A stretch of DNA of 64,000 nt, from assembly GCA_964387845.1 (NCBI GenBank), contig CAYLXA010000008.1:44270-108269 (forward strand), read 5' to 3'. Numbering within the stretch: position 1 is the stretch's first letter; every line of letters begins with the position of its first letter. Shown one piece after another: positions 4,374 to 48,545 of this stretch. Origin of the DNA: an uncultured bacterium. GTDB lineage: Bacteria; Omnitrophota; Omnitrophia; Omnitrophales; Abzuiibacteriaceae. The position numbers and the translations under genes are program-made. The notes beneath the pieces were generated by a model. The model saw only the letters and a program-made list of their open reading frames with translations. It was not told the DNA's origin and made no database searches.

Positions 4374-5297
4374 ATGGAATTTAATCAAATTTTATTGTGG
4401 ACAGGGTTTGGCGTTTTCGTGGTCGCGATGCTGGTGCTTGATTTGGCGGTATTTCATAAGAAAGCGCATGCCGTAAAAATCAAAGAAGCGCTCATGTGGA
4501 GCGCCATTTGGATTGCGCTCGCTTTATTTTTTAATATCGGCGTTTATATTCACAAAGGCCCCGACACGGCGCTCAGGTTTTTAACCGGCTATCTGCTCGA
4601 GAAGTCGTTGAGTGTTGATAACCTCTTTGTTTTCTTGCTGATCTTCCAATATTTTCAAGTTCCGCAGAAATACCAGCACAAAATTCTTTTTTGGGGGATT
4701 TTGGGCGCTCTGATTTTCCGCGCTATTTTCATAGCCGCCGGCATTACGCTGATTCATAAATTCCATTGGATTATTTATGTTTTTGGCGCGATTTTGATTT
4801 GGACGGGCTTGAAGCTGGCGCTCGAGAAAGAAAAGGAAGTGGAGCCGGAAAAAAATATCGTCCTTAAGATTTTCAAGAAGTTGATGCCGATTGCAAACCA
4901 ATATGAAGGCGAGAAATTTTTTATCAAAAAAGACGGCCGAAATTTTGCGACACCGCTCTTTGTCGTGCTGTTAGTGATTGAAACGACGGACGTTATTTTC
5001 GCCGTAGATTCAATTCCCGCGATTTTGGCGATCTCGCACGATCCGTTTATCGTTTATACATCAAACGTGTTTGCCATTTTGGGCCTCCGGGCGCTTTATT
5101 TTGCGCTTTCAGGCGTCATGCAAATGTTCAAACACCTTCACTACGGGCTTGCTGCGATTCTTGTGTTTGTCGGTACTAAGATGCTGATTTCTGAGTTCTA
5201 CAAAATTCCGATTTGGATTTCGCTAAGCGTTATCGCATTTATCTTGTGCCTTTCGATTATTGCGTCTACCTGGAAATTACCTGAAAAACGCGCGTAA
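4374..5297 (+). CDS. TerC family integral membrane protein
   Basis: SLSVDNLFVFLLIF and a second AVDSIPAILAISHDPFIVYTSNVFAILGLRALYF repeat are characteristic of TerC/Alx. RBS AAGGGTGA. Confidence 0.85.
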   Translation: MEFNQILLWTGFGVFVVAMLVLDLAVFHKKAHAVKIKEALMWSAIWIALALFFNIGVYIHKGPDTALRFLTGYLLEKSLSVDNLFVFLLIFQYFQVPQKYQHKILFWGILGALIFRAIFIAAGITLIHKFHWIIYVFGAILIWTGLKLALEKEKEVEPEKNIVLKIFKKLMPIANQYEGEKFFIKKDGRNFATPLFVVLLVIETTDVIFAVDSIPAILAISHDPFIVYTSNVFAILGLRALYFALSGVMQMFKHLHYGLAAILVFVGTKMLISEFYKIPIWISLSVIAFILCLSIIASTWKLPEKRA

Positions 5298-5370
5298 AAT
5301 CCGGTTTGCATTGAATCCGATTGTGAAATTTTATAAAATGACACCGGAATTATTGATTGTTAATAGTTGT

Positions 5371-5449
5371 GTCATCCTGAACGAAGTGAAGGATCTAAGT
5401 TCGTAGACCCTTCGCTCTGCTCAGGGTGACAGGAGTTGCTCAGGATGAC
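5371..5449. repeat. Hairpin-forming copies of a dispersed ~25-nt repeat (GTCATCCTGARCGWAGYGAAGGATC family)
   Basis: 5371-5395 GTCATCCTGAACGAAGTGAAGGATC. 5409-5430 is its imperfect reverse complement CCTTCGCTCTGCTCAGGGTGAC. 5434-5449 is a third partial inverted copy. The same family recurs at 10240-10264 and 10574-10619. Confidence 0.7.
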
Positions 5450-5472
5450 ATTTTAATTAGGGAGGTAATCAC

Positions 5473-6180
5473 ATGAACACCAATGAAACGTTAAATTTAG
5501 GCCTTTCGCGCGAAGCAGTTTCCGAGCGCAGTTTTCTGTCACAGGTTTATTTGTGGATGTCTATGGCGCTTGCTTTGACGGGCATCGTGGCATTTGGATT
5601 TGCACAAAATCCGGCTGTCGTCGCCAATTTAATGCGCAGCGGAATCGCGTTTTTCGTGATTATTATTGCACAGCTCGGGCTTGTATTTTGGTTAAGCGCC
5701 GGCATTATGCGGATGAGTCTCACGGCTGCAACAGTCGCGTTCAGCGTTTATTCATTCCTGAACGGATTGATTTTCTCGACGCTTTTCCTGGTTTATACGG
5801 GAAGCTCAATCGCATCCACTTTCTTCGTCACGGCCGGCACGTTTGCTGCCGTCAGTCTTTATGGCTATACGACAAAACGTGATCTGACTTCGATCGGCAG
5901 TTTCTTATTTATGGCGTTAATCGGCATGATCATCGCTTCGATTGTAAACATGTTTCTCAAGAGTCCGGCGATGTATTGGATTTTGACCTATGCCGGTGTT
6001 GCGATTTTCGTGGGGCTCACGGCATACGACACGCAGCGCCTGAAAAGAATCCACGAGCAGGGATTTCAAAGCGGTGAAATGCTTTCCAAAATGGCGCTAT
6101 TGGGTGCGCTCGCACTTTACCTCGACTTCATCAATTTGTTCCTGCTTCTTTTGCGGGTGATGGGCAGGCAGCGCAGTTAA
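5473..6180 (+). CDS. Bax inhibitor-1/YccA (TMBIM) family membrane protein
   Basis: 7-TM, 235 aa. FLSQVYLWMSMALALTG...YDTQRL conserved blocks of the BI-1/YccA family. Strong RBS GGGAGG. Confidence 0.85.
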   Translation: MNTNETLNLGLSREAVSERSFLSQVYLWMSMALALTGIVAFGFAQNPAVVANLMRSGIAFFVIIIAQLGLVFWLSAGIMRMSLTAATVAFSVYSFLNGLIFSTLFLVYTGSSIASTFFVTAGTFAAVSLYGYTTKRDLTSIGSFLFMALIGMIIASIVNMFLKSPAMYWILTYAGVAIFVGLTAYDTQRLKRIHEQGFQSGEMLSKMALLGALALYLDFINLFLLLLRVMGRQRS

Positions 6181-9376: not shown

Positions 9377-10249
9377 ATGACTGCCAAACTTTTAGAAGGA
9401 AAAATCATAGCCGAAAAGCTGCAGAAGAAAATTGCAGCAGAGGTGCGCGATCTGACGTCCAAAACAAAGCAAACGCCCAAAATGGTGGCAATCCGGATTA
9501 ATGAAGACCAAGCCTCAGAGCTTTATTTGAAATCACAGCGGAAAGCCGCGGAGCTTGCCGGCATGAAGCATGAAACGATTACGATTTTGGGTGCGACCGA
9601 AAGACAATTAATTCAGGCCATCGAAAAAGCCAATAAAGACGTATCCATTCATGGCATCATGATTCAAATGCCGCTTCCTCAGGATTTTCATCTCGAAAAT
9701 ATTTTGGATTCCATCGATCACAAGAAAGACATCGAAGGCGTCACGAGTTTTAATTTAGGGCAATTGGTTCTCAAGAAAGACAAATTGGTTCCGTGCACGG
9801 CGCTTTCCTGCATCACTTTGATTGAAGAGACAGGCGAGAAGCTGCGCGGCAAAGAAGCTGTGATCGTGGGCTCCAGCAAAGTCGTTGGGCGCCCGGTTTC
9901 GCTTTTACTTTTAGACCGGATGGCAACCGCGACGGTTTGTCATATTGCGACTTCAGAAGCCGGGAAGCTTGAATCGCATGTGAAGCGTGCGGATATTTTG
10001 GTGGTGGCGGTCGGAAAAGAAAATGTAATTCCCGGGAAATGGGTCAAAGAAGGCGCGATTGTGATTGATGTCGGGATTAACCGTGTGAACGGAAAAACCG
10101 TGGGCGATGTGGAATTTGAAGAAGCAAAATCCAGAGCCAAATTCATTACGCCGGTCCCGGGCGGCGTGGGCCCAATGACGGTGACGATTTTAATGCACAA
10201 TTTGGTAACGGCGTACAGGTGGCAGACAGAGAATGCGTCGTCATTCTGA
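9377..10249 (+). CDS. folD: Bifunctional methylenetetrahydrofolate dehydrogenase/methenyl-THF cyclohydrolase FolD
   Basis: MTAKLLEGK..., the NAD(P)-binding GSSKVVGRPVSLLL block and a PGGVGPMTV C-terminus are conserved in FolD. Start taken at ATG 9377 (GGAG 9355). Confidence 0.9.
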   Translation: MTAKLLEGKIIAEKLQKKIAAEVRDLTSKTKQTPKMVAIRINEDQASELYLKSQRKAAELAGMKHETITILGATERQLIQAIEKANKDVSIHGIMIQMPLPQDFHLENILDSIDHKKDIEGVTSFNLGQLVLKKDKLVPCTALSCITLIEETGEKLRGKEAVIVGSSKVVGRPVSLLLLDRMATATVCHIATSEAGKLESHVKRADILVVAVGKENVIPGKWVKEGAIVIDVGINRVNGKTVGDVEFEEAKSRAKFITPVPGGVGPMTVTILMHNLVTAYRWQTENASSF

Positions 10250-10264
10250 GCGTAGCGAAGAATC
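10240..10264. repeat. Copy of the dispersed 25-nt repeat (GTCATTCTGAGCGTAGCGAAGAATC), overlapping the folD stop
   Basis: Direct-orientation copy. Its inverted partner lies at 10574-10598, and together they bracket the GIY-YIG gene. Confidence 0.65.
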
Positions 10265-10273
10265 TCTGTTTCG

Positions 10274-10564
10274 ATGAAGAAGGGTTACGTTTATTTGCTT
10301 GCGAACAAAGTTAACACTGTAATTTATATCGGAGTTACAAGCAATCTTGCAAAAAGAATTTGGGAACATAAAAAGAAGCTGGTAGAAGGATTTACAAAGA
10401 AATATAACGTAGACAAACTAGTTTATTATGAAATTTTCGAGTTAGTTGTTGATGCAATAAAAAGAGAAAAGCAAATTAAAGGTTGGGTCAGAAAAAAGAA
10501 AGTGGACTTAGTCGAATCACTTAACCCTAATTGGAACGATCTATACAAGAACTTAAACGAATAA
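10274..10564 (+). CDS. GIY-YIG nuclease family protein (URI-domain, COG2827-like)
   Basis: GYVYLLANKVNTVIYIGVTSNLAKRIWEHK...KKY..L.Y.E.F........E..IKGW is the GIY-YIG motif. 96 aa. Confidence 0.85.
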   Translation: MKKGYVYLLANKVNTVIYIGVTSNLAKRIWEHKKKLVEGFTKKYNVDKLVYYEIFELVVDAIKREKQIKGWVRKKKVDLVESLNPNWNDLYKNLNE

Positions 10565-10573
10565 GATGTACGA

Positions 10574-10619
10574 GATCCTTCGCTTCGCTCAGGATGACGG
10601 GCGAAGGGTTCAGGATGAC
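10574..10619. repeat. Inverted copy of the 25-nt dispersed repeat plus a partial second copy
   Basis: 10574-10598 GATCCTTCGCTTCGCTCAGGATGAC is the reverse complement of the consensus. 10610-10619 TCAGGATGAC is a partial repeat. It overlaps the panB ribosome-binding region. Confidence 0.65.
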
Positions 10620-16948: not shown

Positions 16949-17964
16949 ATCAATCAGTTTCAAAACACTCCTCACCCCAACCCTCTCCCATGGGGAGAGG
17001 GCAGGGTGAGGGGTCGAGAAGATTTCATTTTTCAATTCTTGTTTTTTTCGGTACGTTCATCCTTTGCTTCGCGCTCTGGATGACTTATCTACAGCAAGTC
17101 GGCTCCTCCGAAAATCATTTCGGAAGTTACCTGATTCTGATCATGGGCCTTTTATTTTCGGCAGCCTGCGGACTTTTTGTTTGGTCGCTTGAGTCCCGGG
17201 AACAGTTTCTCAAGAATGAAGTTGAGAAGCGGACGGTTCAGCTTCAAAGCATTAATGAGGAACTCGCCGAAAAGAATAAAGAAATCGAAAGCTTTGCTTA
17301 CGCCATCTCGCACGATTTAAAAGCACCGCTGGTTTCCATTCAAGGTTTTACGTCATTATTAAAATCCGAACTCGGAAAAACTGCCGAAGGGCCTGTCGGT
17401 GCTCAACTAGACCGTATTTCAGCAAACGTAAAACAGATGAGTGCGCTTATTCAGGATATCTTGGAATTTTCAAGAGTCGGCCGCATGGAAGAAGAGCAGG
17501 AAAGTGTCGATATGAATGAGCTTTTCAAGGAAATCACGGCTGCGCTGAGGCCTCAAATTGAAAGCAAAAAAATCATACTTGAAATTAAACCGCCTTTTTC
17601 AACGCTGTGGGGATCCCGGAAGCGCCTTCAACAGGTATTTATGAATTTGATCGGAAATTCCGTTAAATATATAGGTACTACGCCCAGCCCCAAGGTTAAA
17701 GTATATGGCCGGGAATCCGGAAACGGGCTTTTTGAGATTTGCGTTGAAGACAACGGCATCGGGATCCCGAAAGAAGCTCAGGAAAAGGTATTTAAAATTT
17801 TTCAGCGTTTTCATCCTAAATTGGGCGTCGAAGGGACCGGAATCGGTTTGAGCACCGTCAAGAAAATCGTAGAGACGAGCGGCGGGCGGATTTCGTTTAC
17901 GTCGGAACCCGGCAAAGGAACGTCTTTTTTTATCGCCTGGCCGAAAACGGATTTAAAAAAATGA
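16945..17964 (+). CDS. Sensor histidine kinase (2 TM, HisKA + HATPase_c) with an in-frame palindromic-element insertion near the N-terminus
   Basis: H-box FAYAISHDLKAPL, N-box LIGNSVKY, G-boxes DNGIGIP / GTGIGLSTV. Start placed at the ATG overlapping the hemB stop (ATGA). The ORF opens at 16936. Confidence 0.8.
   Translation: MNQSVSKHSSPQPSPMGRGQGEGSRRFHFSILVFFGTFILCFALWMTYLQQVGSSENHFGSYLILIMGLLFSAACGLFVWSLESREQFLKNEVEKRTVQLQSINEELAEKNKEIESFAYAISHDLKAPLVSIQGFTSLLKSELGKTAEGPVGAQLDRISANVKQMSALIQDILEFSRVGRMEEEQESVDMNELFKEITAALRPQIESKKIILEIKPPFSTLWGSRKRLQQVFMNLIGNSVKYIGTTPSPKVKVYGRESGNGLFEICVEDNGIGIPKEAQEKVFKIFQRFHPKLGVEGTGIGLSTVKKIVETSGGRISFTSEPGKGTSFFIAWPKTDLKK
16970..17011. repeat. REP-like nested palindrome CCTCACCC-CAA-CCCTCTCCC-ATGG-GGAGAGGG-CAG-GGTGAGG inside a coding region
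   Basis: Perfect nested inverted repeat. It is translated in-frame as SPQPSPMGRGQGEG in the kinase N-terminus. A related double unit is at 41725-41808. Confidence 0.7.
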
Positions 17965-20006: not shown

Positions 20007-20396
20007 ATGAAACGCGTTCTCATTATCGATGACGACAAAGATTATGCCGATCTTCTGATGATCCGGCTGAACCAAGCCGGTTACGAAGCCGAATGGTTCA
20101 ACGGATGTGAAGCTGCGACACAACGCCTCGATAAGAGCATGGATTTTGATGTGGTTGTCTTGGATGTTGAAATGCCGGAGAAAAACGGCATGGCCACTCT
20201 CGCTTACCTCAAAAATCATTTCAAAGCCCGAGGATTTAACAAATTCCCCATTCCCGTCATTGTCGCAACCGGCCTTCAAAGCCAGGAGCTCCGCGAAATT
20301 TTCCTCGATCAAGACGTCGCCGATTACATTCAGAAACCCTTCGATTCCTCCGTCCTCACCAAGAAAATCGAAAACATCCTCTCCAAAAATAAATAA
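20007..20396 (+). CDS. Single-domain response regulator (REC only)
   Basis: VLIIDDDKDYADLL...VVVLDVEMPEKNGM...VIVATGL...YIQKP. Confidence 0.75.
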   Translation: MKRVLIIDDDKDYADLLMIRLNQAGYEAEWFNGCEAATQRLDKSMDFDVVVLDVEMPEKNGMATLAYLKNHFKARGFNKFPIPVIVATGLQSQELREIFLDQDVADYIQKPFDSSVLTKKIENILSKNK

Positions 20397-20409
20397 GTAA
20401 GTAAGCACC

Positions 20410-20660
20410 CAAGGAGAGTGTTCCGTCGGCGCCGGCGTTCATTCGCTCCAGTCCCAATTGTCATCAAAGCCTTAAAGCGCTTATTTATAGGTGAATTGGG
20501 GCTGCCCTCACCTTCAAAGAAAATACAATGTAGGTGATGGGCTGCAGTGAATGCCGCCTGCCGCTCACTCATTGAACCCGCGCCACTTTGCTTCACGAAG
20601 TAAAGTGGCGGGGACCAAGCTTCAACGAGCTCCGAGAGCCGCCTTTGGAACACTCTCCTT
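20410..20660. other. Structured ~250-nt intergenic element bounded by perfect 16-bp terminal inverted repeats (MITE-like element or novel structured RNA)
   Basis: CCAAGGAGAGTGTTCC at 20410-20425 pairs exactly with GGAACACTCTCCTTGG at 20645-20660. The interior holds several nested hairpins (for example CGCCACTTT-GCTTCACGAAG-TAAAGTGGCG, GGCGCCGGCG) and a direct repeat AGGTGA..GGGCTGC x2. It is higher in GC than its flanks, has no convincing ORF, and did not match the rRNA/tRNA/RNase P/tmRNA/SRP signatures I could recall. Confidence 0.35.
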
Positions 20661-20882
20661 GGATGCAGAAGGGCGGGAGTGAGCCGAGATGTTCTCCGGA
20701 GCGCCATTATTCGGAAAGATTGAAGGGCTCAATCTTTCCGAATAGGCTGAGCACGGCAATTTTTGCTTAGGCAATACGCCTAAAAATTGCCGCGCGGAGG
20801 AAAGCGTAAGAGAAGCGTCTCGGCGAATGACCTCATATTTATTCTTGAAGCAGTGCGTGTTTCATGCTTCAATAGCGGTCTC

Positions 20883-21221
20883 ATGAGCATTCAGGAATTC
20901 CCCGAAATAGAAACATTTCATAAGCTTCCGCGCAAAGTCATCGTCAAAGGCGGAAGTTCCGGCTTCTCCGCGCAAGGCAAACCTGAGCTTCGCGGTATCG
21001 TTATCAACAATATCGGCCATACCGTCAAGGAAGTCCGTGTATCGCTCATTATTTTCAACCAGGATGAAATTCCGGTTTTAAACACGAGCATATCCGCGGA
21101 CCCCGAAATTCTGCAGCAGGGCGGTATCGGCTCGTTTACATTTACTTTGGATGATTACGGCAAAGAAATTACCAACTACTACCTCTATGCCAACTGGAAG
21201 TACGACGACTCAAACTGGTAA
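20883..21221 (+). CDS. Hypothetical protein (112 aa)
   Basis: ORF in coding-like sequence between the structured element and acs. I recognised no family. The ORF opens at 20787, and ATG 20883 is chosen as the start. Its 3' end overlaps the putative acs start by about 35 nt. Confidence 0.35.
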
Positions 21222-23446: not shown

Positions 23447-26400
23447 GTGCGCAAAAAGCCATTTTTCATCAAAGCAATTGCCCTAGCGCTTTGCTTTACT
23501 TTTATCGCTACCGATACCATCGCTTATTCCGACGCAGCTCAGACATCTCCGCAACTGGCGGAGATGCTGAAGCAGTCCTCGAACTGGTTGAGTTTGAGGG
23601 CCGCTACCATTTCGGGACTTTTCCGCAACGCCGCACCTTCTGTTTCCGGTACGCGTTTACCTGCCGCAGCTCCCAAGTTCGCCCGTTACTTGTCAGAACT
23701 TCGAAATGAAGCCAATGAAAAACCGGTTACGGCTGACTACATATCCGCTCAAACAATTCAGAATCAAAAAACCAATGAAATTACGCCTCCGCCTCAATCT
23801 GAATTACGCCAAGAGAAGCCCAGATTTAAATCGCGGCACAGCTTTTTTAACCATGCCATACAGTTAAGCCGCAACTTATTCAAGCTTTCAGAGTGGAAAC
23901 ACCGGATTTTGAGATTGTCCAGCAGCTTCGGAAACCTTCCAGATGACATTCTGTTTCTAGTTACAACTCTTCCCATATTGATCGGAATATTGATAGTGGA
24001 TGCTCTTGATAATTTTCATGATAACCCCAAAACAAACGCAAGAATATGGTTCTGGGTTGTTACGAGTTCAGCGGTGTGGCTCTTCTCAGTGTTAACTGCC
24101 AATGTTGTTTTATTCAGATTTCAGAAACCTGCAAAAAGAAAATTGCCGGCAAAATCTGATCAGAAAGTTCAACGATCTGAATTGCGCGGCCATTCGGGCG
24201 TAGGGAGTTATGTCATTGGCGATTTGGAATTTAATAAAGGTGATCCAACCGGCTTTGAATTGATTAAACGGTTGATCGGAGAAGTAAGAGCAGGTCTTTT
24301 AACCGGCGAACTTCAAAAAGCCGGCTTGGATCAAGATTCTATTTCACATATATTCCGGCTTGCTTCTTCGCCTAGTAAAAGTGCGCGCGAGCCAATTGGT
24401 TTCAAATACAGTGAAGCGGCCGGTCAGTTTGAGCTGATTAAAAATGATTTGCGCACCTATCTTCATCAGCTTCAGAAAACACAAAATCATGATCACGAAA
24501 TCAATGTTTATGCGCTTGGGTTAGGCAATCTTCCGGTTGAAGCAGAGGAAGTCATCAAGTTGTTTCTGAACGTCATGGAAGAGGAGCTTGGCGAAGCAGC
24601 CAAAAATTGGTCTTTTAATTTTATCGGAATTGATTTTCAAGACGAACCCATCAAAGTCGCGCGAAAATACTTTGCAGAAGATATGGCTTCTCTAAAAGAA
24701 AAAGGATTCCGGAAAGTCACTTTACAAGCTGTGAAGGCAAACGCACTGTCATCTTCAGAGCTGACGCGGGTATTTGAAGAAACGGGTGGCTCTAAGAAAG
24801 CAGACTATTTATTTCATCGGCATGTGATGTATGTAAACCGTGCTTCAAGTTGGTTAAATCAGCTTCGAGGCCTCACTCCTATCACGATGTTACGGCCTGT
24901 GCTTGCTGACGCGTTGGAGTCGTACCTTCAATCACAGAATTTGATCGGCGCATTTACAAAAACAGGTACACGTTATGTTATTGAACCTCTCGCCAGCTCA
25001 GACCCAAGCATACGGGAAGTTGTCATTCCGGGATCCAGCGTTTTGCCGCAGGAAAATGGCGCAGCCGGCAGCGGGATTTATATTGTGAATGACCCCGCCG
25101 TTTTTACAGCAACCGGCTTCATTCAATATCTCCAGGATCAGCTTGGAGAAAATTTCTCCATCTCCGGCCCTCTTCGGGTCGATCGGACTGGAGGCCGGGG
25201 AGAGCTGCGCCGGGCTTCGAATTTTCATTTTGTAAACACAGTACGCAGAGTGTTGCGGCGGGAAATCGCCCAAATAGAAAAAGACAAGTGGCAAAACTGG
25301 GCAGTTGGTTTTGAGCCTGTGCAAGATGTTGCAAGCCACCTTGTCCGCGGTGCAAAGGGCGAGCTATGGATTCATTTGCACTTAACCTACCACGGACATG
25401 ATAAACGTGCTCGTTTCGCCGAAAATGGCGTCTATGACTTGGGATTGCTTTTCCGGATAACCGATCGAGAGAATCAATTAACTCTTGATGCCCCCATGAT
25501 TGAACCGCAAATAGGCCGGTCTGACTATTTTGCTTTTACACGCGCCGAAACGGTGCTTTCTTCCGAGCAGGCGGCCCGGCTTGTGAAGGAGGGAACGGAA
25601 TTTGTCAATTCGCACGCCGGTCCGATCCGCAGTGCAATGCGTCTTGCCAAGAAAAAACCGAGCTCAATTCATAATCTATTGGGCCGTGCAGTATCGCCCC
25701 GGCACGCACGAGGCCTTTACAACATGATGACATTAGGGCATGAGGAAAAGCGTGTGATTGACCGTACAAAAAGGCGCTCGGTTACTTATCGGTTTGTGGG
25801 CAGCCGGCGAAGCGAGCTGCGTCAAAAATCGGAATTAGATTCGGCCCGAGAGTTTGTGGCTCACGCTATCCAAACCGGCCAATTGAAATTAGATCTGTTT
25901 GATCGGGGAAGGGAGCCTGCAAAACAAATTCTTCAGGAAGTTTTAGCTGAAAATCAAAAGCGAAAAACGGATCATATTCAAGAAGTCGAAACCGCAAGGC
26001 ACAAAATAGCAACTTTCGAATCAAGGTTCAAAAAAATCCGTGATGAAATTGATTTTGACCCGTTTAAACCTCTGGCGCCGACGGAGCAGGAAAAAATCAT
26101 GGAATGGTGGGCTGATGACCTGTACATGATGGAATATGAAATCAGAAATTATTTAGCCGAAATTCAGTCGGGGCAGCATCCGTTTTCAGGAAACGAATTG
26201 GATCAAGTAGTGGATGCTTTAATAGCCGCTTACCGGTGGAGTATGGATGTTGTTGCTTTTTTTGAAAAACAAAAAGCAGAACTATTATTCTTTCGAAATC
26301 AAGAGACCACCGACAGCGAAGAGTCGGCCGATACCATGGCGGCACTTTCAGGCGCATTTTCAGTTTTAGCCGACATCAAATCTCCGCGCGGACAAATCCC

Positions 26401-29400
26401 GGAAAATGTTTTTTTTGCCATAGCTGCAACCAAGCGCCACAAAGCGAAAGAATTTTTACTTTCTGTTCTTCGTGAGATTGGTTTCGATAAAACAAAATCC
26501 GAAACCCAGAAAATCGTGAGAGGAAGGGCGCTTAATTATCTGTTTGCCCACTTTCACAGCTCGGAACTTGCAGCACTGGCCCGGCAGGCAATTGAAAATT
26601 TAGGCAGAGAGCAAAGATTTGATTACGATGGCTGGGCATTTGATAGCGCGTTCATGGAACTTTTGCCTTATCTCGGAGATGAGAATGTTAAAGCGTATAT
26701 TTTTAATTACTTAAAAGATGATTTTCAATTCGGAAAAGCTCTCGAAGCTGGGAACTGTTTGGAATACTTGCTGTTCGATTTAGAAACCGCGGAGGTCCCG
26801 GGTTGGTTTAAGGAGCGCTTGCAGATTTATTCGGAAAAAAATGCAGCGGCTATGGATGATTTTGGAATTACGGAAAATCAGGAAGCCTATTTAAATCGAA
26901 TTAAAAAATTAAATGATTTTCTAGCTCTAAAAGAAGCCGGAATCGGGCTGCCGTCTTATCAATTTTCAAAATACGTTTTTCGGCCTATTCATTCACAGGA
27001 TGAAATAGACACACTGCGCAAAATGAGCGGTTCATTTCCCGGACGACGCCCTGGTTGGAGCCCATGGGATATGACCGATTTTGTATTGGAAGATAGCAAG
27101 ACCCGTCAAATTGTCGGAGGCGGCATGATTTCGGAGCATGACTACGACACAGAAGCGCACCATATTCATCTTGTTGCTCTGAGTGACCAGCTGCAAGGCC
27201 GGGATAGGGCAGATGCGTTTGTGTTTATTCTCGCCGGCATGTTGCAATCCATGTCGCCAAAAATCAAAGGCCGGAAAGTTGTTTGGCGCACATGGGTAAA
27301 AGATATTCTGGAAAAGACACTCGCGCTTGATTTGGCGGGCGTTGATTTAGAACCTCTCATCAATCAAAACCCTGATGATGCACGCTCGGAATTGCTCAGT
27401 AAGCCTGAATCGCAGAATCCTATCCTCGAAATCAATCAAGATTGGCGAAACATTTTTGATGACAACGCAAAACCGCTGGTGGTGGATGTCGGGTTCGGAA
27501 ACGGAGAAACACTGCTTTACCGAGCACAGCACGAGCCGGACAAAAATTTCATCGGTATCGAACTTCCCGAAGAGCCGTATGCGGATATGCTGGCTGAAAG
27601 GATTCAAACAGTGGGAATCAAAAACCTAAAAGTCCTCAAAGTGGCTGATTTTGAGGCATTTCGCACTCAACTCAAATTCGGGAACCAAGCAATCGTTTCA
27701 GAGCTAACTTATTACGATCCGTTTCCGGATAGTCCTTATGTATTTAGAGAACATACCGCTGATTTACAGCAAATTTTAAAACCCGGCGCGCTCGTTAAAA
27801 TCATGGTTTTTGAACACGAATTTTGGCAAGAACTGTCCGGCATTTTTGAATCCAACGGATTTCAAACGCTAAATCCTGCCGACCATGTTTTTGAGGATAA
27901 TCATGATACGCAGGATTCAAATGAGGCATTTAGCACTCAACTGAAACTTATTTTCCGATGGCCCGGTCTATCATCAAATCGTTCCGAATTGCGCCAAGAC
28001 CTCAAAATTCAGACGATTCTAAACGATATTGCCCAAAGCAGATTGATTTCGGAGAATCAGCCGGAAACTCGGTCTTTTTTTAATAGAATTTCGGATCGGT
28101 TAAAACAAAAATCAGTTTCCCAAACTTTCTTTTTGACCGGATTGTTACTTTCATCTTATGTCTATATTTTATTCGAGCGCTGGCTTGCTGCCGAGCCGGT
28201 CGAATCGAATGCTCAAGAAATAGCTGCCGCCATTTTACTATTGGGCATTATTTCTACGATTTTTACCACGATCGTTAAGAGAATGAATAAGTCTAGTACA
28301 TCCTGGCGCTGGGATGTTATTAGCTTTTCGGAAAATCAAATCATAGAAGATGCATTGACTTTTCTGGACCCTCACAAACATCAATTAAATCCCAATGTGG
28401 ATATTATTGTTGAGAAAAGAAGCCACAGGTTTAAGCGTATTGCCATCGGATTTTTCAAAGAAAGTTTAAAAAATCTTGGCGCCGGTGCAATGTTTTTATT
28501 GATAGGAGGCTTTTTAGCTTGGAAAATTGGATACGGCCTTCTTGATTTGTACAAGCAAGACCTGCACGCTGCATTTAAAGTCCCTGTCTATGGCATATTC
28601 GGCGCGGGGCTGATTGTGTTTGGTTTTGTGGGCATGATGGGATTTACCGTGCTTTTTCTATCTCCGTTCATTGCTCTTATGCAGGCTTGGGATGGAGAGT
28701 TTTCAGATAAGGGAATCGAGGACCAAAGAATTTTTGTCCAGCACCAAGAATCCGAAGATGTTTTTTACGAGACGCTAGTTGAAGAATTAAATCACCGTTT
28801 CAAACTCCGCCGAGAGCCGCTTCCGGAGTTTCCAAAAACACTGGATGGTTTGCGGCTCGCCATGATACTCAAACGCTACGGCCTCCCCGGCAGTGAAATT
28901 GCGAATCGTTCCGCCTCCGGCCTCCTCCGGGTCTTGCGCCCTGAAGGGTCAGAGACCGCAGACCGTAACGCTCTCCGAGCCAACGGCTCGATGGAGCCGA
29001 GGGCACGGGGGGAACTTCGGCAGTCGGAACCTCGGAAGATGAGCAGGGCTGAGCTCGCCTCTTTATTCAGGGCGCAGCTACGCGAGGCGAATTTCATTGC
29101 ATCGATACCGGTGTTGATACAACACGTATGGAATGTAATCGCCAAATTAGCAAAGCCCCTCAACTTCCAGTTTCGCGAACTAGGCCTAACGCAAGAGCTC
29201 CTCCGTTTGCAGACAGGGTTTTGGATCACCCGATTTGGGCCTGAAGACCGGATGTGGTGGGGACTCCGCGACGGCATGAAGTTCGGAGATACCGTTAATT
29301 GGTGGGGGCCTAAACAAAAAAGACCGGAGCCCCTGGGTTTTCATACCGGGATTGATTTTGTGATGTATCAAAATTTTCAAAAGGCCTGGAAAACAATTCC

Positions 29401-38400: not shown

Positions 38401-38992
38401 ACAAAACAGGTTGGATGCCGTCATTCATGAAATCCGGAATAATTCATCAAGTGCCGTACGTTCAGAATTAAAAGTTCAGAGCGAGAAATTGGTTCAATTT
38501 TTAACCGGCGGACAAAATAGAGCCACGTCATTGTCGGGCACTGCCGAAGCTGCCAACGCGCGCTCGGCGTTTGTCTTTTTGCCCGGAACCACCAATGAGC
38601 TGGGCGCTGTTTTTAACCAGATTACAGAAGCTCTTGCCGCCAAAAGCGAATTGAGAGCCGAAATCATTGCTTACGTGGATGGCCCGTTGATGGCGCGCAC
38701 AATCCGTGAAATCATCCTCGGTGTTCAGGGCGCTGAGCGTGTCCATATCGTGGCGAGTAATGAAGAGGCCGTGGCTAAAGCTCAGTCTCTAAACGTTGCG
38801 CATGCACATTTGATCGGATGGGAGGGGGAGCTTGAAGCGCCGTTTGTCCAAAATTTGGAGGACAGCTACCTGAAGCTCGGTATTCGCGTGGTGAAGAAAA
38901 ATGTAAGTGATTTCATGAGTTTTCTCGGGCGTGAGGCCGCTCGTTTTATCCAAGGATGGAAATCAGCAGTTCTCTACGCCAAATCCGCATAA
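23447..38992 (+). CDS. Giant (5181 aa) secreted/membrane-anchored mosaic protein with about 18 [RK]SELR linker motifs, 3+ methyltransferase domains, an M23 peptidase domain, HhH and HTH modules, and FYN-G beta-repeats
   Basis: Uninterrupted 15,546-nt ORF. N-terminal signal peptide MRKKPFFIKAIALALCFTFIATDTIAYS. TM clusters at about 23.84-24.12, 28.09-28.69, 31.0-31.35 and 35.46-35.83 kb. Recognisable modules: TrmB-like MTase (VVDVGFGNGETLL...FIGIEL), M23 (GFHTGIDF...PHLHLSIGW), RpoA-alphaCTD-like HhH (ISRLNIRYRLQRRIRQAGIRTVGQLVDL), MTS-type MTase (LVVGSGSGFDTW...FDRIIWNMPEH), PIMT (GQTISQPS...VLEVGAGSGW...PFDKIVVSAG...GGLLIIPV), 3 x HTH, 6 x FY(N/D)xxGxLL repeats. Confidence 0.85.
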   Translation: MRKKPFFIKAIALALCFTFIATDTIAYSDAAQTSPQLAEMLKQSSNWLSLRAATISGLFRNAAPSVSGTRLPAAAPKFARYLSELRNEANEKPVTADYISAQTIQNQKTNEITPPPQSELRQEKPRFKSRHSFFNHAIQLSRNLFKLSEWKHRILRLSSSFGNLPDDILFLVTTLPILIGILIVDALDNFHDNPKTNARIWFWVVTSSAVWLFSVLTANVVLFRFQKPAKRKLPAKSDQKVQRSELRGHSGVGSYVIGDLEFNKGDPTGFELIKRLIGEVRAGLLTGELQKAGLDQDSISHIFRLASSPSKSAREPIGFKYSEAAGQFELIKNDLRTYLHQLQKTQNHDHEINVYALGLGNLPVEAEEVIKLFLNVMEEELGEAAKNWSFNFIGIDFQDEPIKVARKYFAEDMASLKEKGFRKVTLQAVKANALSSSELTRVFEETGGSKKADYLFHRHVMYVNRASSWLNQLRGLTPITMLRPVLADALESYLQSQNLIGAFTKTGTRYVIEPLASSDPSIREVVIPGSSVLPQENGAAGSGIYIVNDPAVFTATGFIQYLQDQLGENFSISGPLRVDRTGGRGELRRASNFHFVNTVRRVLRREIAQIEKDKWQNWAVGFEPVQDVASHLVRGAKGELWIHLHLTYHGHDKRARFAENGVYDLGLLFRITDRENQLTLDAPMIEPQIGRSDYFAFTRAETVLSSEQAARLVKEGTEFVNSHAGPIRSAMRLAKKKPSSIHNLLGRAVSPRHARGLYNMMTLGHEEKRVIDRTKRRSVTYRFVGSRRSELRQKSELDSAREFVAHAIQTGQLKLDLFDRGREPAKQILQEVLAENQKRKTDHIQEVETARHKIATFESRFKKIRDEIDFDPFKPLAPTEQEKIMEWWADDLYMMEYEIRNYLAEIQSGQHPFSGNELDQVVDALIAAYRWSMDVVAFFEKQKAELLFFRNQETTDSEESADTMAALSGAFSVLADIKSPRGQIPENVFFAIAATKRHKAKEFLLSVLREIGFDKTKSETQKIVRGRALNYLFAHFHSSELAALARQAIENLGREQRFDYDGWAFDSAFMELLPYLGDENVKAYIFNYLKDDFQFGKALEAGNCLEYLLFDLETAEVPGWFKERLQIYSEKNAAAMDDFGITENQEAYLNRIKKLNDFLALKEAGIGLPSYQFSKYVFRPIHSQDEIDTLRKMSGSFPGRRPGWSPWDMTDFVLEDSKTRQIVGGGMISEHDYDTEAHHIHLVALSDQLQGRDRADAFVFILAGMLQSMSPKIKGRKVVWRTWVKDILEKTLALDLAGVDLEPLINQNPDDARSELLSKPESQNPILEINQDWRNIFDDNAKPLVVDVGFGNGETLLYRAQHEPDKNFIGIELPEEPYADMLAERIQTVGIKNLKVLKVADFEAFRTQLKFGNQAIVSELTYYDPFPDSPYVFREHTADLQQILKPGALVKIMVFEHEFWQELSGIFESNGFQTLNPADHVFEDNHDTQDSNEAFSTQLKLIFRWPGLSSNRSELRQDLKIQTILNDIAQSRLISENQPETRSFFNRISDRLKQKSVSQTFFLTGLLLSSYVYILFERWLAAEPVESNAQEIAAAILLLGIISTIFTTIVKRMNKSSTSWRWDVISFSENQIIEDALTFLDPHKHQLNPNVDIIVEKRSHRFKRIAIGFFKESLKNLGAGAMFLLIGGFLAWKIGYGLLDLYKQDLHAAFKVPVYGIFGAGLIVFGFVGMMGFTVLFLSPFIALMQAWDGEFSDKGIEDQRIFVQHQESEDVFYETLVEELNHRFKLRREPLPEFPKTLDGLRLAMILKRYGLPGSEIANRSASGLLRVLRPEGSETADRNALRANGSMEPRARGELRQSEPRKMSRAELASLFRAQLREANFIASIPVLIQHVWNVIAKLAKPLNFQFRELGLTQELLRLQTGFWITRFGPEDRMWWGLRDGMKFGDTVNWWGPKQKRPEPLGFHTGIDFVMYQNFQKAWKTIPEGTEVQALYGGTVVSVFQDDMQSTLVVNQEITDTDGGNTLVTIYAHIEPETNVQPGVKIEAGDVLGRIRRSRNERSIVSPHLHLSIGWAKPEFFERLKSDGVDWPFVDALAKEGLLTYVDPLTFLDKNEADHFFMNAQHNKLKKILILNTQPGAQFFLTRQVIEKQFPGVTTLAVRSFEEAQKILNDPSSEIDAVVRVDESASISFPRKYLKRTAVLDYQEKNKREFLRQLHVVNVIGRLYHEPISRLNIRYRLQRRIRQAGIRTVGQLVDLANLPKKFRKFTTGLSKVPEGLERRLQGSRYKDEIIRAIVSVQPQAILTRSILHRRSLGFFQMAYRLTFGFEYHPETRNFAELILFLNGLSGSVFKELVKQFDVHIQTDLIDILQRVARIAPEAISVNVLEMFIDDEETPKRMRENFNTLADLIHMARNDTKRFKEIFGYQISWHVLLLLLEILYDAVPGEIMWQEWPDLVHTVLNPHNLPRTFGSGGLSGHINAYSAAIQAHWRRLMAEHKGYAKRKDRSELRQAGDRQIFQRAFQGIAFGGYGAGLIAATWQMLTVYPQMLRPSLFVILLTWNFYQIVKLILKQPFVSQEKINQEKYINRQLIITHLPQLGLIKAHMLAPWLEAFMQAPEVGALFLTVSGLLVSKLAFDSYLRNDGRASGRSELRTNDPEEPNAKNPRTSTYETIISNRPQMNPTESNTEQASLFMAPLENVTPDAVRWLDRVFNSRLPKGQYVFVGVVVDRKSKDIQAFQDGVYMIAKFLEVGGAFEEIGLNEIKNKKLRRRITAVGKGSSVRVIEFASVGGGDDYEIPLRRLQGVVEDYYSNEPIVWIPISPEGELSSTLGWKPKNRAFHLTLVHQAPEQEPEARSELRNDGGIILEAGQQIKAVEGYQMQLQENGSVAFYRERLSSPEPDPVEVVKPTMAGMPVYDEAGNIMGYVGITHDFEGQGEDRKLIARTAFYPEPEFDIEKTHVPSTWPAWELLKAVGLLIPKEDAHILKIEDISQTSDSKIHRITVRVPEEQSFPLRGIEILARELIENPSAEQQFDLVYNEKGHLLAVFPVFGNENRAAAEDGLFLDVSPYYFEVPKDIRGESKLLIDQFLREWRQNQQHIQAYQKKHFGSNRMNFWHFSYNNDENNDEDNKEEPLYQFYHLLHSHGHDLSYLGEVEVQSLEHIFYYVSKDPDRKMLLLPIFPTVFPPSGDPQHDTEYHKAILIDPRFDLNENQRTLVVGSGSGFDTWLVSLKTRKTVSVIDINPLAVANTKALAKIAGFKVLARTADNIVDESGKPTFPDARFDRIIWNMPEHVEGDGPSHGQLATQRTKWYLTDHWDGDVDGFSLTRFASGLCDILNPDSRVLIWNSNNEDSILNAFENRGMEVERAGLNYRYSLYFIQPSAAAGELLEPISNSADQRSEPQKHIAVLQRFKHNPTGFMGWLKNEIAEVLTIIDMPSGQFMKLPDAERRKKNQRIENAISMLYGVEDFISAKDAAKIIKNIDEARRMLDEIYQMSEWRKNDFSAIRGGKQDSKLPASTEQAWHARDIFNEFLPKNGLGEALQKYTGDKKVLDTAAEKWLPVFTRVPKHLFMPKYLRQDAYLHDAPYRIGYGQTISQPSLVAFILALLDLEPSDEVLEVGAGSGWLAALMSQQAAHVYATELIPQLAGRAERVIENMGIQNVSIVEADGSVGYPQAAPFDKIVVSAGSPNVPELLVNQLREGGLLIIPVLDPAASKKQKSYKLTLFVKEGGKLTEKLAIDRVNFVDLRGVHGWQPAPKRSELRRAAQPKDSNSEKSTPKPETESDRRIIRAVNYFLKEKRPFNQGDIAKKARVSLQTVTNRKHANPSIARFVDWALEKAPKAEPKSVQALIRAAKQLKKEGKSGVTNSVVADLAGYHPQTVTSISKLYPKVKQAVQGARQSPHAQISPTIQKVVDVIKAAAKKKQVFQNEGQIAQAAEIRPETLSRIKKRRSSYREPFLQLLQYAVSDPDRALEIIKKHFSIHSEQRVSVQASAQDENLRSELRADGAIQDPGMVVTALIGVAAFGILIFGFDSVRERAFKVGSAALKLIRRLFWLWTGVLWISTHLAYAAHRVRPDSQDKIYQATGFDPGDLNYSEFLYPWAIFTVFIYPVAAFGLMRYLNRLVMRRNVLPFETSPSRSIPAHPTTSELDINRKVGTAQPSDQYSKDPLMKGRAELRASGSNPKKKDTSKATDLEKRFKELLEEADRTLEANKQLEDGLDEIHKVLPELPKDIIDGRSELRQSDPIGTASALPGPLAKSELRNFLPNQNPINRLDAKQGSGIGARGNVLEGRSGSNSEFYNYRGEKVLVLPTSTAKGILGLGDFIVVMPRPKPGTQDHILFYNSSGSLLFEAVNVSDYSLVGENMAIKFANGNIQFYDKTGKKLLSSFDHFSNFHPSQIDLQGDLLVFKKSSNEVGFYNSTGSLILRKSKGTDFDSFYVKGSFIVLVKKDNHHVYSGLTGKLIAKTQASVGETAQFDGDFFAVVNWNEFTFYNLQGKKILEKRTGSGDDNFINWSGEGGLLTFDKTHSRTFYDENGKLLAAIQKRVFASRVVNKVLRLEDNADFYEWYDFSPNALSASSKGQKSLDQIFSHNPAMLSRIRDYVKRRYDNPLMSREEPNHDLSSDLDDASNLIQLEKMPTEWIDDLSSLVLTGYNPSDKGARSILKEAAIQLGLIQAPSSQTKEAVPITYNQKALMRILSSGVITEAIRNGQFSFPTTGKRSSLIFLSDDGTNVKRIDETDSAKANVQLEFYLSSDNRTVGVSISVRDDNKASGWRVQHEEPKQLKDLQTSIEPASSKPSLTIVSARKQRTLDELINKVSKFPGWSNPGPSTYSFAHQATQISAFYTGIVPNLQPRWAWHLKVISSGYNLSVVVEDHIQSPGKWITVVKFNNSGSNNSVASQEWGNHLIDIEQNGLKTNIYMTKAYVDSLVKNRIPLKGATIDGVEWEFIPINPKQILPAKSELRTQAEQVSIETLDAALSVEPKAQNRLDAVIHEIRNNSSSAVRSELKVQSEKLVQFLTGGQNRATSLSGTAEAANARSAFVFLPGTTNELGAVFNQITEALAAKSELRAEIIAYVDGPLMARTIREIILGVQGAERVHIVASNEEAVAKAQSLNVAHAHLIGWEGELEAPFVQNLEDSYLKLGIRVVKKNVSDFMSFLGREAARFIQGWKSAVLYAKSA

Positions 38993-39038: not shown

Positions 39039-40304
39039 ATGAGTCAATCAAGTAAGCTGTTCCAGCAGTCTAAAACACATTTCCCGGGAGGTGTGAATTC
39101 ACCGGTACGGGCGTTTCGTGCTGTCGGAGGATCGCCGCGTTTTATTGCGAAAGCCAAAGGGCAATTTATTTGGGACGCAGACGGCAAAAAATATCTCGAT
39201 TTCTGCCAGTCTTGGGGCCCGATGATTTTGGGCCACGCGCATCCGAAAGTAGCGAAAGCAATCTCCGATCAAGCCAAAAAAGGAACGAGTTACGGCGCGC
39301 CGACCGAAAATGAATCGAAACTTGCTTCCTTAATTAAAGAAGCATTTCCATCCATTCAGAAAATGCGGTTTACGTCATCCGGCACGGAAGCCGCGATGTC
39401 CGCAATCCGGGTTGCGCGCGGATTCACGAAACGGAAGAAAATCCTCAAATGCGACGGCTGCTATCATGGCCATAGCGATTCGTTGCTTGTGAAAGCCGGC
39501 TCGGGTGGTGCGACATTCGGTGTTCCGGATTCGGCCGGTGTGCCGGAAGACCTCGCGAAGCTCACGATTACGATTCCGTACAACGATTTTGACGCGCTTG
39601 AGCGTATATTTAAAAAAGAAGGAAAAAACATCGCTGTTTTTGCTCTGGAGCCCGTTCCGGCCAATATGGGCGTTGTATTGCCAAAACCCGGCTTCCTGGA
39701 GTTTGCGAGGGCCCTGACTAAGAAATACGGCACTTTGCTCATGTTTGACGAAGTCATTACGGGTTTTCGCATCGCTTTTGGCGGTGCGCAGGAATATTAC
39801 GGAATTAAAGCTGATCTCACATGCCTAGGAAAAATCGTAGGCGGCGGGCTTCCGATCGGTGTTTTCGGCGGCCGCGCAGACATTATGAGCAAAATTTCAC
39901 CGGAGGGGGCTGTTTATCAAGCCGGAACTTTGTCGGGAAATCCTCTGGCGACTGCGGCCGGCATTGCGACCTTGACGGAATTAAAGAAAAAGGATTTTTA
40001 CAAGCAGCTTAATATCAAGGCTCTTGAATTTTTCGGGATGCTGGATGATGTGTTCGAACGGGGAAGTTATCCGGTAACGCTCAACCGGATCGGCTCCATG
40101 TTCACAATTTTTTGTACACCAAACCCCGTATTTGATTACGAGTCCGCAAAATTTGCACATCCGGAGTGTTACGCCCAAATGTTTCAAAGTTTGCTTTCCA
40201 AAGGGGTTTATTTCGCGCCGTCACAGTTTGAAGCCAACTTTATTTCACAGGCAATGACACGCGAAAATCTTCAAAAAGTCGTTTCAGTTATTTCTCGTTT
40301 TTAA
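39039..40304 (+). CDS. hemL: Glutamate-1-semialdehyde 2,1-aminomutase
   Basis: FPGGVNSPVRAFRAVGG, GPMILGHAHPKV, FTSSGTEAAMSAIRVARGFT, PLP-lysine region GKIVGGGLPIGVFGGR. Confidence 0.9.
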   Translation: MSQSSKLFQQSKTHFPGGVNSPVRAFRAVGGSPRFIAKAKGQFIWDADGKKYLDFCQSWGPMILGHAHPKVAKAISDQAKKGTSYGAPTENESKLASLIKEAFPSIQKMRFTSSGTEAAMSAIRVARGFTKRKKILKCDGCYHGHSDSLLVKAGSGGATFGVPDSAGVPEDLAKLTITIPYNDFDALERIFKKEGKNIAVFALEPVPANMGVVLPKPGFLEFARALTKKYGTLLMFDEVITGFRIAFGGAQEYYGIKADLTCLGKIVGGGLPIGVFGGRADIMSKISPEGAVYQAGTLSGNPLATAAGIATLTELKKKDFYKQLNIKALEFFGMLDDVFERGSYPVTLNRIGSMFTIFCTPNPVFDYESAKFAHPECYAQMFQSLLSKGVYFAPSQFEANFISQAMTRENLQKVVSVISRF

Positions 40305-48474: not shown

Positions 48475-48503
48475 AGAAATAAAGCGGTTTCTGAGAATCA
48501 AAT

Positions 48504-48545
48504 ACAAAACGGGACAGCTTTTAAGCTGTCCCGTTTTGTATTTGA
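48504..48545 (+). terminator. Rho-independent terminator
   Basis: CAAAACGGGACAGC-TTTTA-GCTGTCCCGTTTTG followed by TATTT. Confidence 0.65.

Follow-up and report, generated by a model that had tools for sequence, protein, structure and literature searches.

The intergenic region upstream of the acs gene in this Omnitrophota genome appears to hold two adjacent, independent structured modules, here called D1 and D2, within an insertion of about 440 nt that follows a response-regulator operon and precedes the promoter of the next unit. Each module is closed by a terminal inverted repeat of 16-27 bp. The two belong to separate families of insertion elements that are dispersed in Omnitrophota and occur sporadically among lineages, and in both families the base-paired architecture is preserved through compensatory change. 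The explanation that we favour, tentatively and with a little less than even confidence, is that D1 and D2 are dispersed, insertion-type structured modules, similar to MITEs and BIMEs but atypical, with a possible role at the tail of an operon.

In the window, that is, the whole stretch of 64,000 nt that was analysed, the neighbouring genes all lie on the plus strand. The genes hemD and hemB, a histidine kinase gene and four response-regulator genes (the last at 20007-20396) precede the non-coding region, which is followed by a 112-aa gene (20883-21221), acs (to 23193) and an ORF of 5181 aa. The 112-aa gene, which separates the element from acs, encodes a protein without a Pfam match, and its homologues all belong to Candidatus Omnitrophota. 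The 5181-aa ORF (23447-38992) lies between acs and hemL (39039-40304); since acs and hemL are directly adjacent in several other Omnitrophota loci, this giant gene seems to have been inserted at their junction in a lineage-specific manner.

The element described in the original prediction, D1, is only the first half of a structured, non-coding block (20397 to about 20838) that has no assigned strand and constitutes extra DNA in comparison to sister lineages. The second half, which had been overlooked, is a closed three-way-junction module, D2 (20677-20834). On its 5' side the block is bordered by the stop codon of the response-regulator gene (20394-20396) and on its 3' side by the promoter-like region of the 112-aa gene. 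This region (20840-20882, plus strand) has the form TTGAAG-17 nt-TTCAAT, lies outside the element directly 5' of the ATG, and is conserved as TTGnnn-17 nt-TTCAAT in lineages with and without D1-D2. A GTTTCRTGYTTCAATA motif is found 8-10 nt 5' of the ATG in the window, L074, L091, L092, L093 and L076, implying that the leader is very short or absent; more distant Omnitrophota have TATAATAC about 20 nt upstream of the ATG instead. Because a promoter-like motif stands next to the ATG, the block comes after the end of the response-regulator operon and before the signals that start the following unit. For the element itself, a promoter and terminator scan yielded neither a sigma-70-like promoter nor a canonical terminator.

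D1 (20405-20666, no assigned strand) measures 262 nt and consists of a long closing helix that encloses a multi-branch interior. The perfect 16-bp terminal inverted repeats that had been proposed are indeed exact reverse complements, but their coordinates were 1-2 nt off: the 16-mer CCAAGGAGAGTGTTCC spans 20409-20424 and is matched by an exact complement spanning 20647-20662. In a longer form, the closing-helix arms comprise 27 nt each (20405-20431 and 20640-20666) with 85% complementarity. A third copy of the 16-nt repeat does not occur within the 64 kb, even if up to three mismatches are allowed. The predicted internal features are present as well, namely an inner hairpin with 17-nt arms (20578-20594 and 20597-20613), the palindrome GGCGCCGGCG (20428-20437) and the direct repeat AGGTGA..GGGCTGC, which is found twice (20489-20505 and 20532-20545).

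The interior can be described by comparison with an orthologous copy in a related lineage, L076. Core block 1, GCGCCGGCGTTCATTCGCTC (20429-20448), forms the 5' side of an inner hairpin and is 100% identical in L076. The loop of this hairpin is expanded by 93 nt of AT-richer sequence (20450-20542), which holds the AGGTGA..GGGCTGC repeat and is found in the window copy only; in L076 and in a third copy, L042, the loop reads CCUGC. It is followed by core block 2, GAATGCCGCCTGCCGCTCACTCATTGAACC (20549-20578), with 3 differences over 30 nt, and by the apical hairpin with the 17-nt arms (20578-20613), the equivalent position of which is taken by a different hairpin in L076. Finally, core block 3, CCAAGCTTCAACGAGCT (20615-20631), is again 100% identical and is able to pair with CTCATTGAA of block 2.

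The claim that the element is highly structured holds on both strands. Folded as RNA, the plus strand of 20400-20670 reaches -124.7 kcal/mol (z -8.7, with 0 of 200 shuffles equally good) and the minus strand -128.3 kcal/mol (z -7.4, equalled by no shuffle); in a GC-corrected scan the D1 region ranks first as the most structured 240-nt stretch of the 64-kb window. The GC content is 0.52-0.57 over the element versus about 0.45-0.49 in its flanks and about 0.47 in the genome. Furthermore, as had been supposed, no plausible protein is encoded, with stops in all six frames and no conserved reading frame. The sole long ORF common to the window and L076 copies is a minus-strand frame of 125 aa overlapping D1, which an 8-nt indel between these orthologues shifts to a different frame.

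The fold of 20397-20840 consists of two closed domains, corresponding to D1 and D2 (z -9.1). D2 is 158 nt long and is closed by a helix of about 20 bp (20677-20696/20810-20834) that encloses two hairpins, arranged as a three-way junction. Hairpin A (20708-20744) has a perfect 16-bp stem with the loop AGGGC and shows double changes in 7 of its 11 modelled pairs, and hairpin B (20751-20795) contains the motif GAGCACGG..TGCTTAGGC..GCCTA..CCGCGCG, kept in all three copies of the module. In the window block, 143 Watson-Crick pairs are counted versus 12 G-U pairs. The block as a whole folds about equally well on both strands; D1, in each of its three copies, is more stable by 4-15 kcal/mol when folded from the strand opposite the plus strand of the window, and D2 is unbiased. 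The first reading had recognized no canonical RNA family, and Rfam 15 likewise gives no match in the window at 20300-20900 or in L076. At gathering thresholds there are zero matches in the whole 64-kb window, and at E<=10 only noise (E>0.9) is obtained for 20300-20900 and for L076 1-460. ARAGORN detects neither a tRNA nor a tmRNA.

Indications of mobility come from the orthologous site in relatives. In a collection of 15 billion proteins, a response regulator directly precedes the 112-aa gene in six lineages only, and among these D1-D2 is present in the window and L076 only. Four of the six have 45-71 nt at the site (45 nt in L073/L074/L075 and L091, 71 nt in L093); in one lineage, L092, an unrelated element of the GTCATTCTGAGC hairpin type (265-385), flanked by a target duplication (CTTAG), takes the very site of D1-D2 in the window. 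In gene trees the window is nearest to L091, the site of which is empty, so that the distribution demands either several losses or some lateral movement. In most Omnitrophota a gene of about 566 aa encoding an RR-GGDEF-HD protein precedes the 112-aa gene, with fewer than 100 nt between the two; in the clade of the window this gene has been lost and has left no trace in the spacer, as judged against L077, L089 and L002-L072.

The orthologous block of L076 (55-400) comprises about 345 nt, is about 70% identical to that of the window and is devoid of the 93-nt loop expansion. The core blocks of 20, 30 and 17 nt have 90-100% identity, and the third codon positions of the flanking genes have 48-52%, which is near saturation. 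The conservation of the internal blocks suggests in situ purifying selection, a pattern typical of functional RNA. The 70% identity of the non-coding DNA versus 48% at synonymous sites is in itself weak evidence for such selection, because an identical pattern would result if the element had spread laterally at a more recent time.

Homologues of the two modules are found separately at other sites. A two-sequence nhmmer profile gave a marginal match in L011, and the covariance model of D2 (R1), which scores 201.6 bits for the window and 207.5 bits for L076, assigns 65.9 bits (E 1.7e-14) to L011:5285-5448(-), the copy being delimited more narrowly as 5296-5437. It lies in reverse orientation downstream of acs in an acs-hemL spacer of 406 nt; the spacer is about 70-120 nt in L021 and L006, and larger in L005 and L013. 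The covariance model of D1 (R2) scores 176.7 bits for the window, 192.9 bits for L076 and 39.2 bits (E 7e-8) for L042:823-977. The L042 copy occupies a spacer of 334 nt that separates panB from an RR-GGDEF gene, and is upstream of the RR-GGDEF gene. In most relatives, with 82-86% nucleotide identity, this spacer measures 0-36 nt, and in L051 it contains a different insertion of about 160 nt; the comparison of the occupied and empty site was made for L042 versus L049, L057, L061, L038 and L063.

Directly 5' of the D2 homologue in L011 lies another module, X (5455-5615, minus strand), a closed multi-hairpin structure of about 160 nt whose closing helix measures about 20 bp. It was considered as a homologue of D1 and rejected: model R2 does not recognize it, and it shares only the CCUGCG loop and a UCACCG motif. 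No D2 was found beside the D1 copy of L042. As X is not recognized as D1 and L042 is without D2, D1 and D2 are independent units. A descent of both from a tandem duplication was likewise discarded, the weak similarity of their 5' arms (z 3-4) being visible in the L076 copy and absent in the window copy.

The L011 and L042 copies were recovered solely with the two-sequence profile and the covariance models; single-sequence blastn or nhmmer searches revealed no other copies in 71 GTDB Omnitrophota loci, and a three-sequence D2 model revealed no further ones in 515 kb. The copy count therefore amounts to one in the 64 kb of the window and one non-orthologous copy per family in 515 kb from about 75 Omnitrophota genomes. 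Plasmid and phage collections contain no blastn match to the element. Of three exact-pattern scans of IMG/VR, two gave chance matches in coding DNA and one gave none, and a scan of JGI metagenomes with TTGAACCN{15,45}CCAAGCTTCAACGAG gave chance matches only. The original prediction had named absence from close relatives together with a lack of copies elsewhere as grounds for rejecting it; the element is indeed absent in relatives, but copies exist at other sites, in L011 and L042.

An alignment of homologous loci reveals the excess of compensatory changes that had been suggested as a check (permutation P <=0.001). Over the three copies of D1, double changes occur in 14 of 40 pairs with 94.9% of cells paired, versus 0-3 in slid controls; for D2 they occur in 22 of 49 pairs with 100% of cells paired, versus 2-6. 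Since both counts derive from three sequences per family, two of them orthologous, and from model-fitted alignments, they are supportive rather than conclusive. When the structure of one copy is tested on the other, 13 double-change pairs are found versus 5.2 expected (P about 0.001), and a second such test gives 15 versus 4.7 (P<0.0005). The changes are frequent in the closing helices: both sides differ in 9 of 14 pairs of the D1 closing helix (helix 1), where the sequence of the arms has changed and the pairing has been kept, and in 9 of 16 pairs of that of D2. The terminal arms are thus the least conserved, co-varying part of the modules, with core blocks that stay nearly identical. A non-selective process, the template-switch correction of quasipalindromes, may also produce apparent compensatory changes in short-loop hairpins. 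The word "remnant", which the original prediction had attached to a transposon origin, does not fit a structure that is actively maintained in this way.

Prokaryotic MITEs are smaller than 500 bp, have terminal inverted repeats of 4-30 bp and give rise to transcripts that form very stable stem-loops (PMC10969869). Judged by the characteristics listed in that work, D1 (262 nt) and D2 (158 nt) are short and non-coding, their terminal inverted repeats are of appropriate length (16 nt exact or 27 nt at 85% for D1, about 20 bp for D2), and an empty-site polymorphism is seen at the site in the window and L076 as well as at the L042 site. Flanking direct repeats, shared terminal sequences or a cognate IS, and AT-richness were not found for D1 and D2. 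As flanking direct repeats fade with age (PMC10969869), a missing target duplication is only weak evidence against a MITE. In the window, neither of the modules nor the block as a whole is surrounded by such a duplication; in L076 a 3-nt AGT flanks D1 and TAAT flanks the block, possibly by chance. The MITE-like nature originally proposed is therefore borne out by insertion polymorphism, dispersal and terminal inverted repeats, and not by target duplications, terminal sequence conservation or base composition.

In many aspects the modules resemble QMITE2 of Coxiella, the Correia/NEMIS elements of Neisseria and the enterobacterial ERIC/IRU elements: they have a length below 500 nt, inverted repeats of 16-27 bp around a core of 120-210 nt, an intergenic location, a presence or absence that varies between close relatives, stable predicted stem-loops and dispersed copies. 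In contrast to these elements, D1 and D2 have no target duplications, have co-varying terminal repeats, are GC-rich, occur at a very low copy density and lack a known cognate IS, and their copies are deeply diverged (39-66 bits) with the structure nevertheless kept. The modules are also reminiscent of the BIMEs of E. coli and the pneumococcal BOX A-B-C elements, in which different hairpin modules stand side by side in variable combinations. Such combinations are seen here as D1 with D2 in the window and L076, X with D2 in L011, and D1 with other hairpins in L042. Clusters of the BIME and BOX type are cotranscribed with adjacent operons, whose transcripts they can stabilise or terminate. However, D1 and D2 are branched three-way junctions of 150-260 nt instead of simple palindromes of 35-60 nt, and few copies are seen.

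The interpretation as mobile modules relies on several elements: the insertion polymorphism, with D1-D2 in the window and L076 and 45-71 nt in four lineages; the dispersal of each module alone, D2 in L011 and D1 in L042; the terminal repeats, small size and missing ORF; helices that are almost entirely Watson-Crick, with strands that overall fold about equally well; and the location in what appears to be an insertion hotspot, in a window with further repeat-bounded cassettes and palindromic repeats. D1 and D2 would then be palindromic elements of small size, mobile but non-autonomous, that assemble into mosaic clusters as MITEs or BIMEs do, and the feature that is recognized or selected would be the folded structure together with a short internal core, rather than the terminal sequence. 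Some observations argue against this. The terminal arms co-vary, whereas a repeat recognized by a transposase should keep its sequence; the GC content of the modules exceeds that of the genome, whereas a typical MITE is AT-rich; the conserved internal blocks fit purifying selection in situ; and the observed copies are few. A transposase or cognate IS with the ends of D1 or D2 was not seen in the window. Transcription of the response-regulator operon probably extends through the block, which would form the tail of its transcript. If there is any effect on the host, it could be imagined that the very stable RNA hairpins act as a 3'-end barrier or insulator between two transcription units, although such a role is at odds with the lack of a canonical terminator and with the sister lineages that manage without the element.

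The spacer that holds D1-D2 is an insertion hotspot in a genome rich in palindromic insertions. In the window, a gene for a GIY-YIG nuclease of 96 aa (10274-10564; PF01541, E 8e-18) is flanked by the inverted repeats CGTCATTCTGAGCG/CGCTCAGGATGACG (10239-10599), which belong to the GTCATTCTGAGC family, and a hairpin of this family without an ORF is present at 5370-5450. A 124-aa gene of the 23S_rRNA_IVP family (58727-59101; PF05635, E 7e-12) lies in an AT-rich spacer (58687-59170) bounded by 42-nt inverted repeats with 86% complementarity, and looks like a repeat-bounded small-gene cassette. Palindromes of the form CCCTCTCCC..GGGAGAGGG occur three times, with 0 expected (16981-17001, 41738-41760 and 41776-41796), all inside ORFs. 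One is located in the N-terminus of a histidine kinase, where it encodes the peptide SPMGRGQGEG, and two in the linker of a MacB-type ABC transporter (40492-42486, minus strand); they look like in-frame insertions of palindromic repeats. Finally, a perfect 23-bp palindrome, TCAAATACAAAACGGGACAGCTT/AAGCTGTCCCGTTTTGTATTTGA (48498-48545), in an AT-rich spacer resembles a bidirectional terminator.

Equivalent spacers of other Omnitrophota also contain very stable multi-hairpin blocks, unrelated to D1 and D2: L009:535-740, L010:2857-2968, L029:2780-2925 and L051:1307-1470. The fold z-scores of the first three range from -7 to -10, with -10 for L009. The L029 block has a closing helix of 27 bp, and the L010 block is a 110-nt module with a perfect 17-bp terminal repeat, apparently inserted in a duplicated ATAAT -10 box. 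Repeats of about 45 nt are common to unrelated positions and orientations, as between the L013 spacer and L071:3421-6311 and between the L057 spacer and L061, L047, L043 and L068, which indicates the existence of REP-like multi-copy families in this phylum. Some of the spacer repeats in other Omnitrophota loci are clearly multi-copy.

The main rival explanation, possible but on balance doubtful, sees in each module a gene or a domain of a new accessory non-coding RNA, structured and confined to Omnitrophota. Their closing helices, long and co-varying, would in that case be processing stems, for example for RNase III, that free the conserved inner cores from a longer transcript. A conserved core with a co-varying periphery is in accordance with this, as are the excess of compensatory changes (13 versus 5.2, 15 versus 4.7), the hairpin loop of variable length (expanded by 93 nt in the window, CCUGC elsewhere), the GC enrichment relative to the genome and the identity of about 70% in non-coding DNA versus 48% at synonymous sites; being negative in Rfam, the RNAs would be new. 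On the other hand, the closest relatives lack the element, D1 and D2 occur separately, and their position and orientation relative to neighbouring genes are inconsistent. Perfect helices of 16-20 bp with few G-U pairs are unusual for functional RNAs, the strand is inconsistent, D1 folding better on the opposite strand and D2 showing no bias, and promoter and terminator were not found. The families have only three sequences each, in alignments fitted to the models. The novel structured RNA of the original prediction is still a live alternative, by virtue of its Rfam-negative status, covariation and conserved core blocks.

The modules can also be compared with large accessory structured RNAs of the type described by the Breaker laboratory from GC-rich intergenic regions (for example raiA, ROOL and HEARO). 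They share with these a GC-enriched structured intergenic sequence, covariation, a conserved junction or core, variable loop expansion and a sporadic phylogenetic distribution. They differ in being Rfam-negative, in their unusually long and perfect helices, in the three copies per module and in the lack of a consistent strand, context or transcription signal. Both ideas can also be combined: D1 and D2 could be two new Omnitrophota-specific RNAs carried on a small mobile cassette, with processing stems that free conserved three-way-junction cores, each of which would bind a specific partner, a combination that we regard as unlikely.

It is more improbable still that the modules act as folded single-stranded DNA, being substrates of a structure-recognizing recombinase or of a transposase of the HUH type, in the manner of REPIN/RAYT systems or integron attC sites. 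If the structure is what is recognized, pairing rather than sequence should be conserved at the ends, and this is what the terminal arms display. The absence of strand asymmetry, the nearly exclusive Watson-Crick pairing and the insertion in either orientation without an obvious target duplication would also be explained. However, genes for a recombinase, a RAYT or an integron integrase were not seen near any copy, REP and attC sites are far smaller and less branched than the modules, and no R'/R'' boxes of the attC type were noticed in a non-systematic inspection.

The possibility that the element is a cis-regulatory leader or riboswitch of the 112-aa gene and acs, as had been suggested from its location, has very little left in its favour. 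In the window and L076 it does lie upstream of these genes on the same strand. Three-way-junction architectures are common among riboswitch aptamers, and the modules have such an architecture. Nevertheless, the element is missing from the same operon in four sister lineages, and the promoter-like motif conserved in all lineages is situated downstream of it. Across relatives, position and strand are not constant: in L011 the D2 homologue follows acs and is on the opposite strand, and in L042 the D1 homologue lies 5' of an unrelated RR-GGDEF gene. In addition, closing helices of 20-27 bp leave no room for a switching P1, and Rfam riboswitches give no match. On these grounds the leader was rejected.

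Least probable of all is a decayed RR-GGDEF-HD gene or a small-protein gene, which would accord with the RR-GGDEF-HD gene found exactly here in distant relatives and with the 125-aa ORF on the minus strand. At the sensitivity of the searches, a remnant is ruled out by tblastn with nine RR-GGDEF-HD proteins (best E 0.18 against the block), and a small protein or type I toxin by the lack of a conserved frame, the stops in all frames and the frame shift relative to L076; a six-frame pseudo-protein search of 5.8 billion proteins gave no match, and the compensatory changes fit a folded nucleic acid. A retron msr/msd RNA was also dismissed, since no reverse-transcriptase gene is adjacent, the neighbours being response regulators, the Pfam-less 112-aa protein and acs.

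Omnitrophota are uncultivated and their non-coding repertoire is hardly described; a literature search on this subject found nothing relevant. The locus yields two families defined by covariance models, consisting of large, branched intergenic modules that conserve their structure and vary between close lineages. For annotation, this means that neither acs leader nor riboswitch is an appropriate label for the element. If the modules are mobile, they would be unusual MITE-like elements in which pairing is conserved and terminal sequence is not, pointing to a mobilisation mechanism that recognizes structure. If they are RNAs, they would constitute new accessory RNA classes, and if they are RNAs on a mobile cassette, they would form a new accessory class of ribonucleoprotein RNAs, in a phylum without a cultured model.
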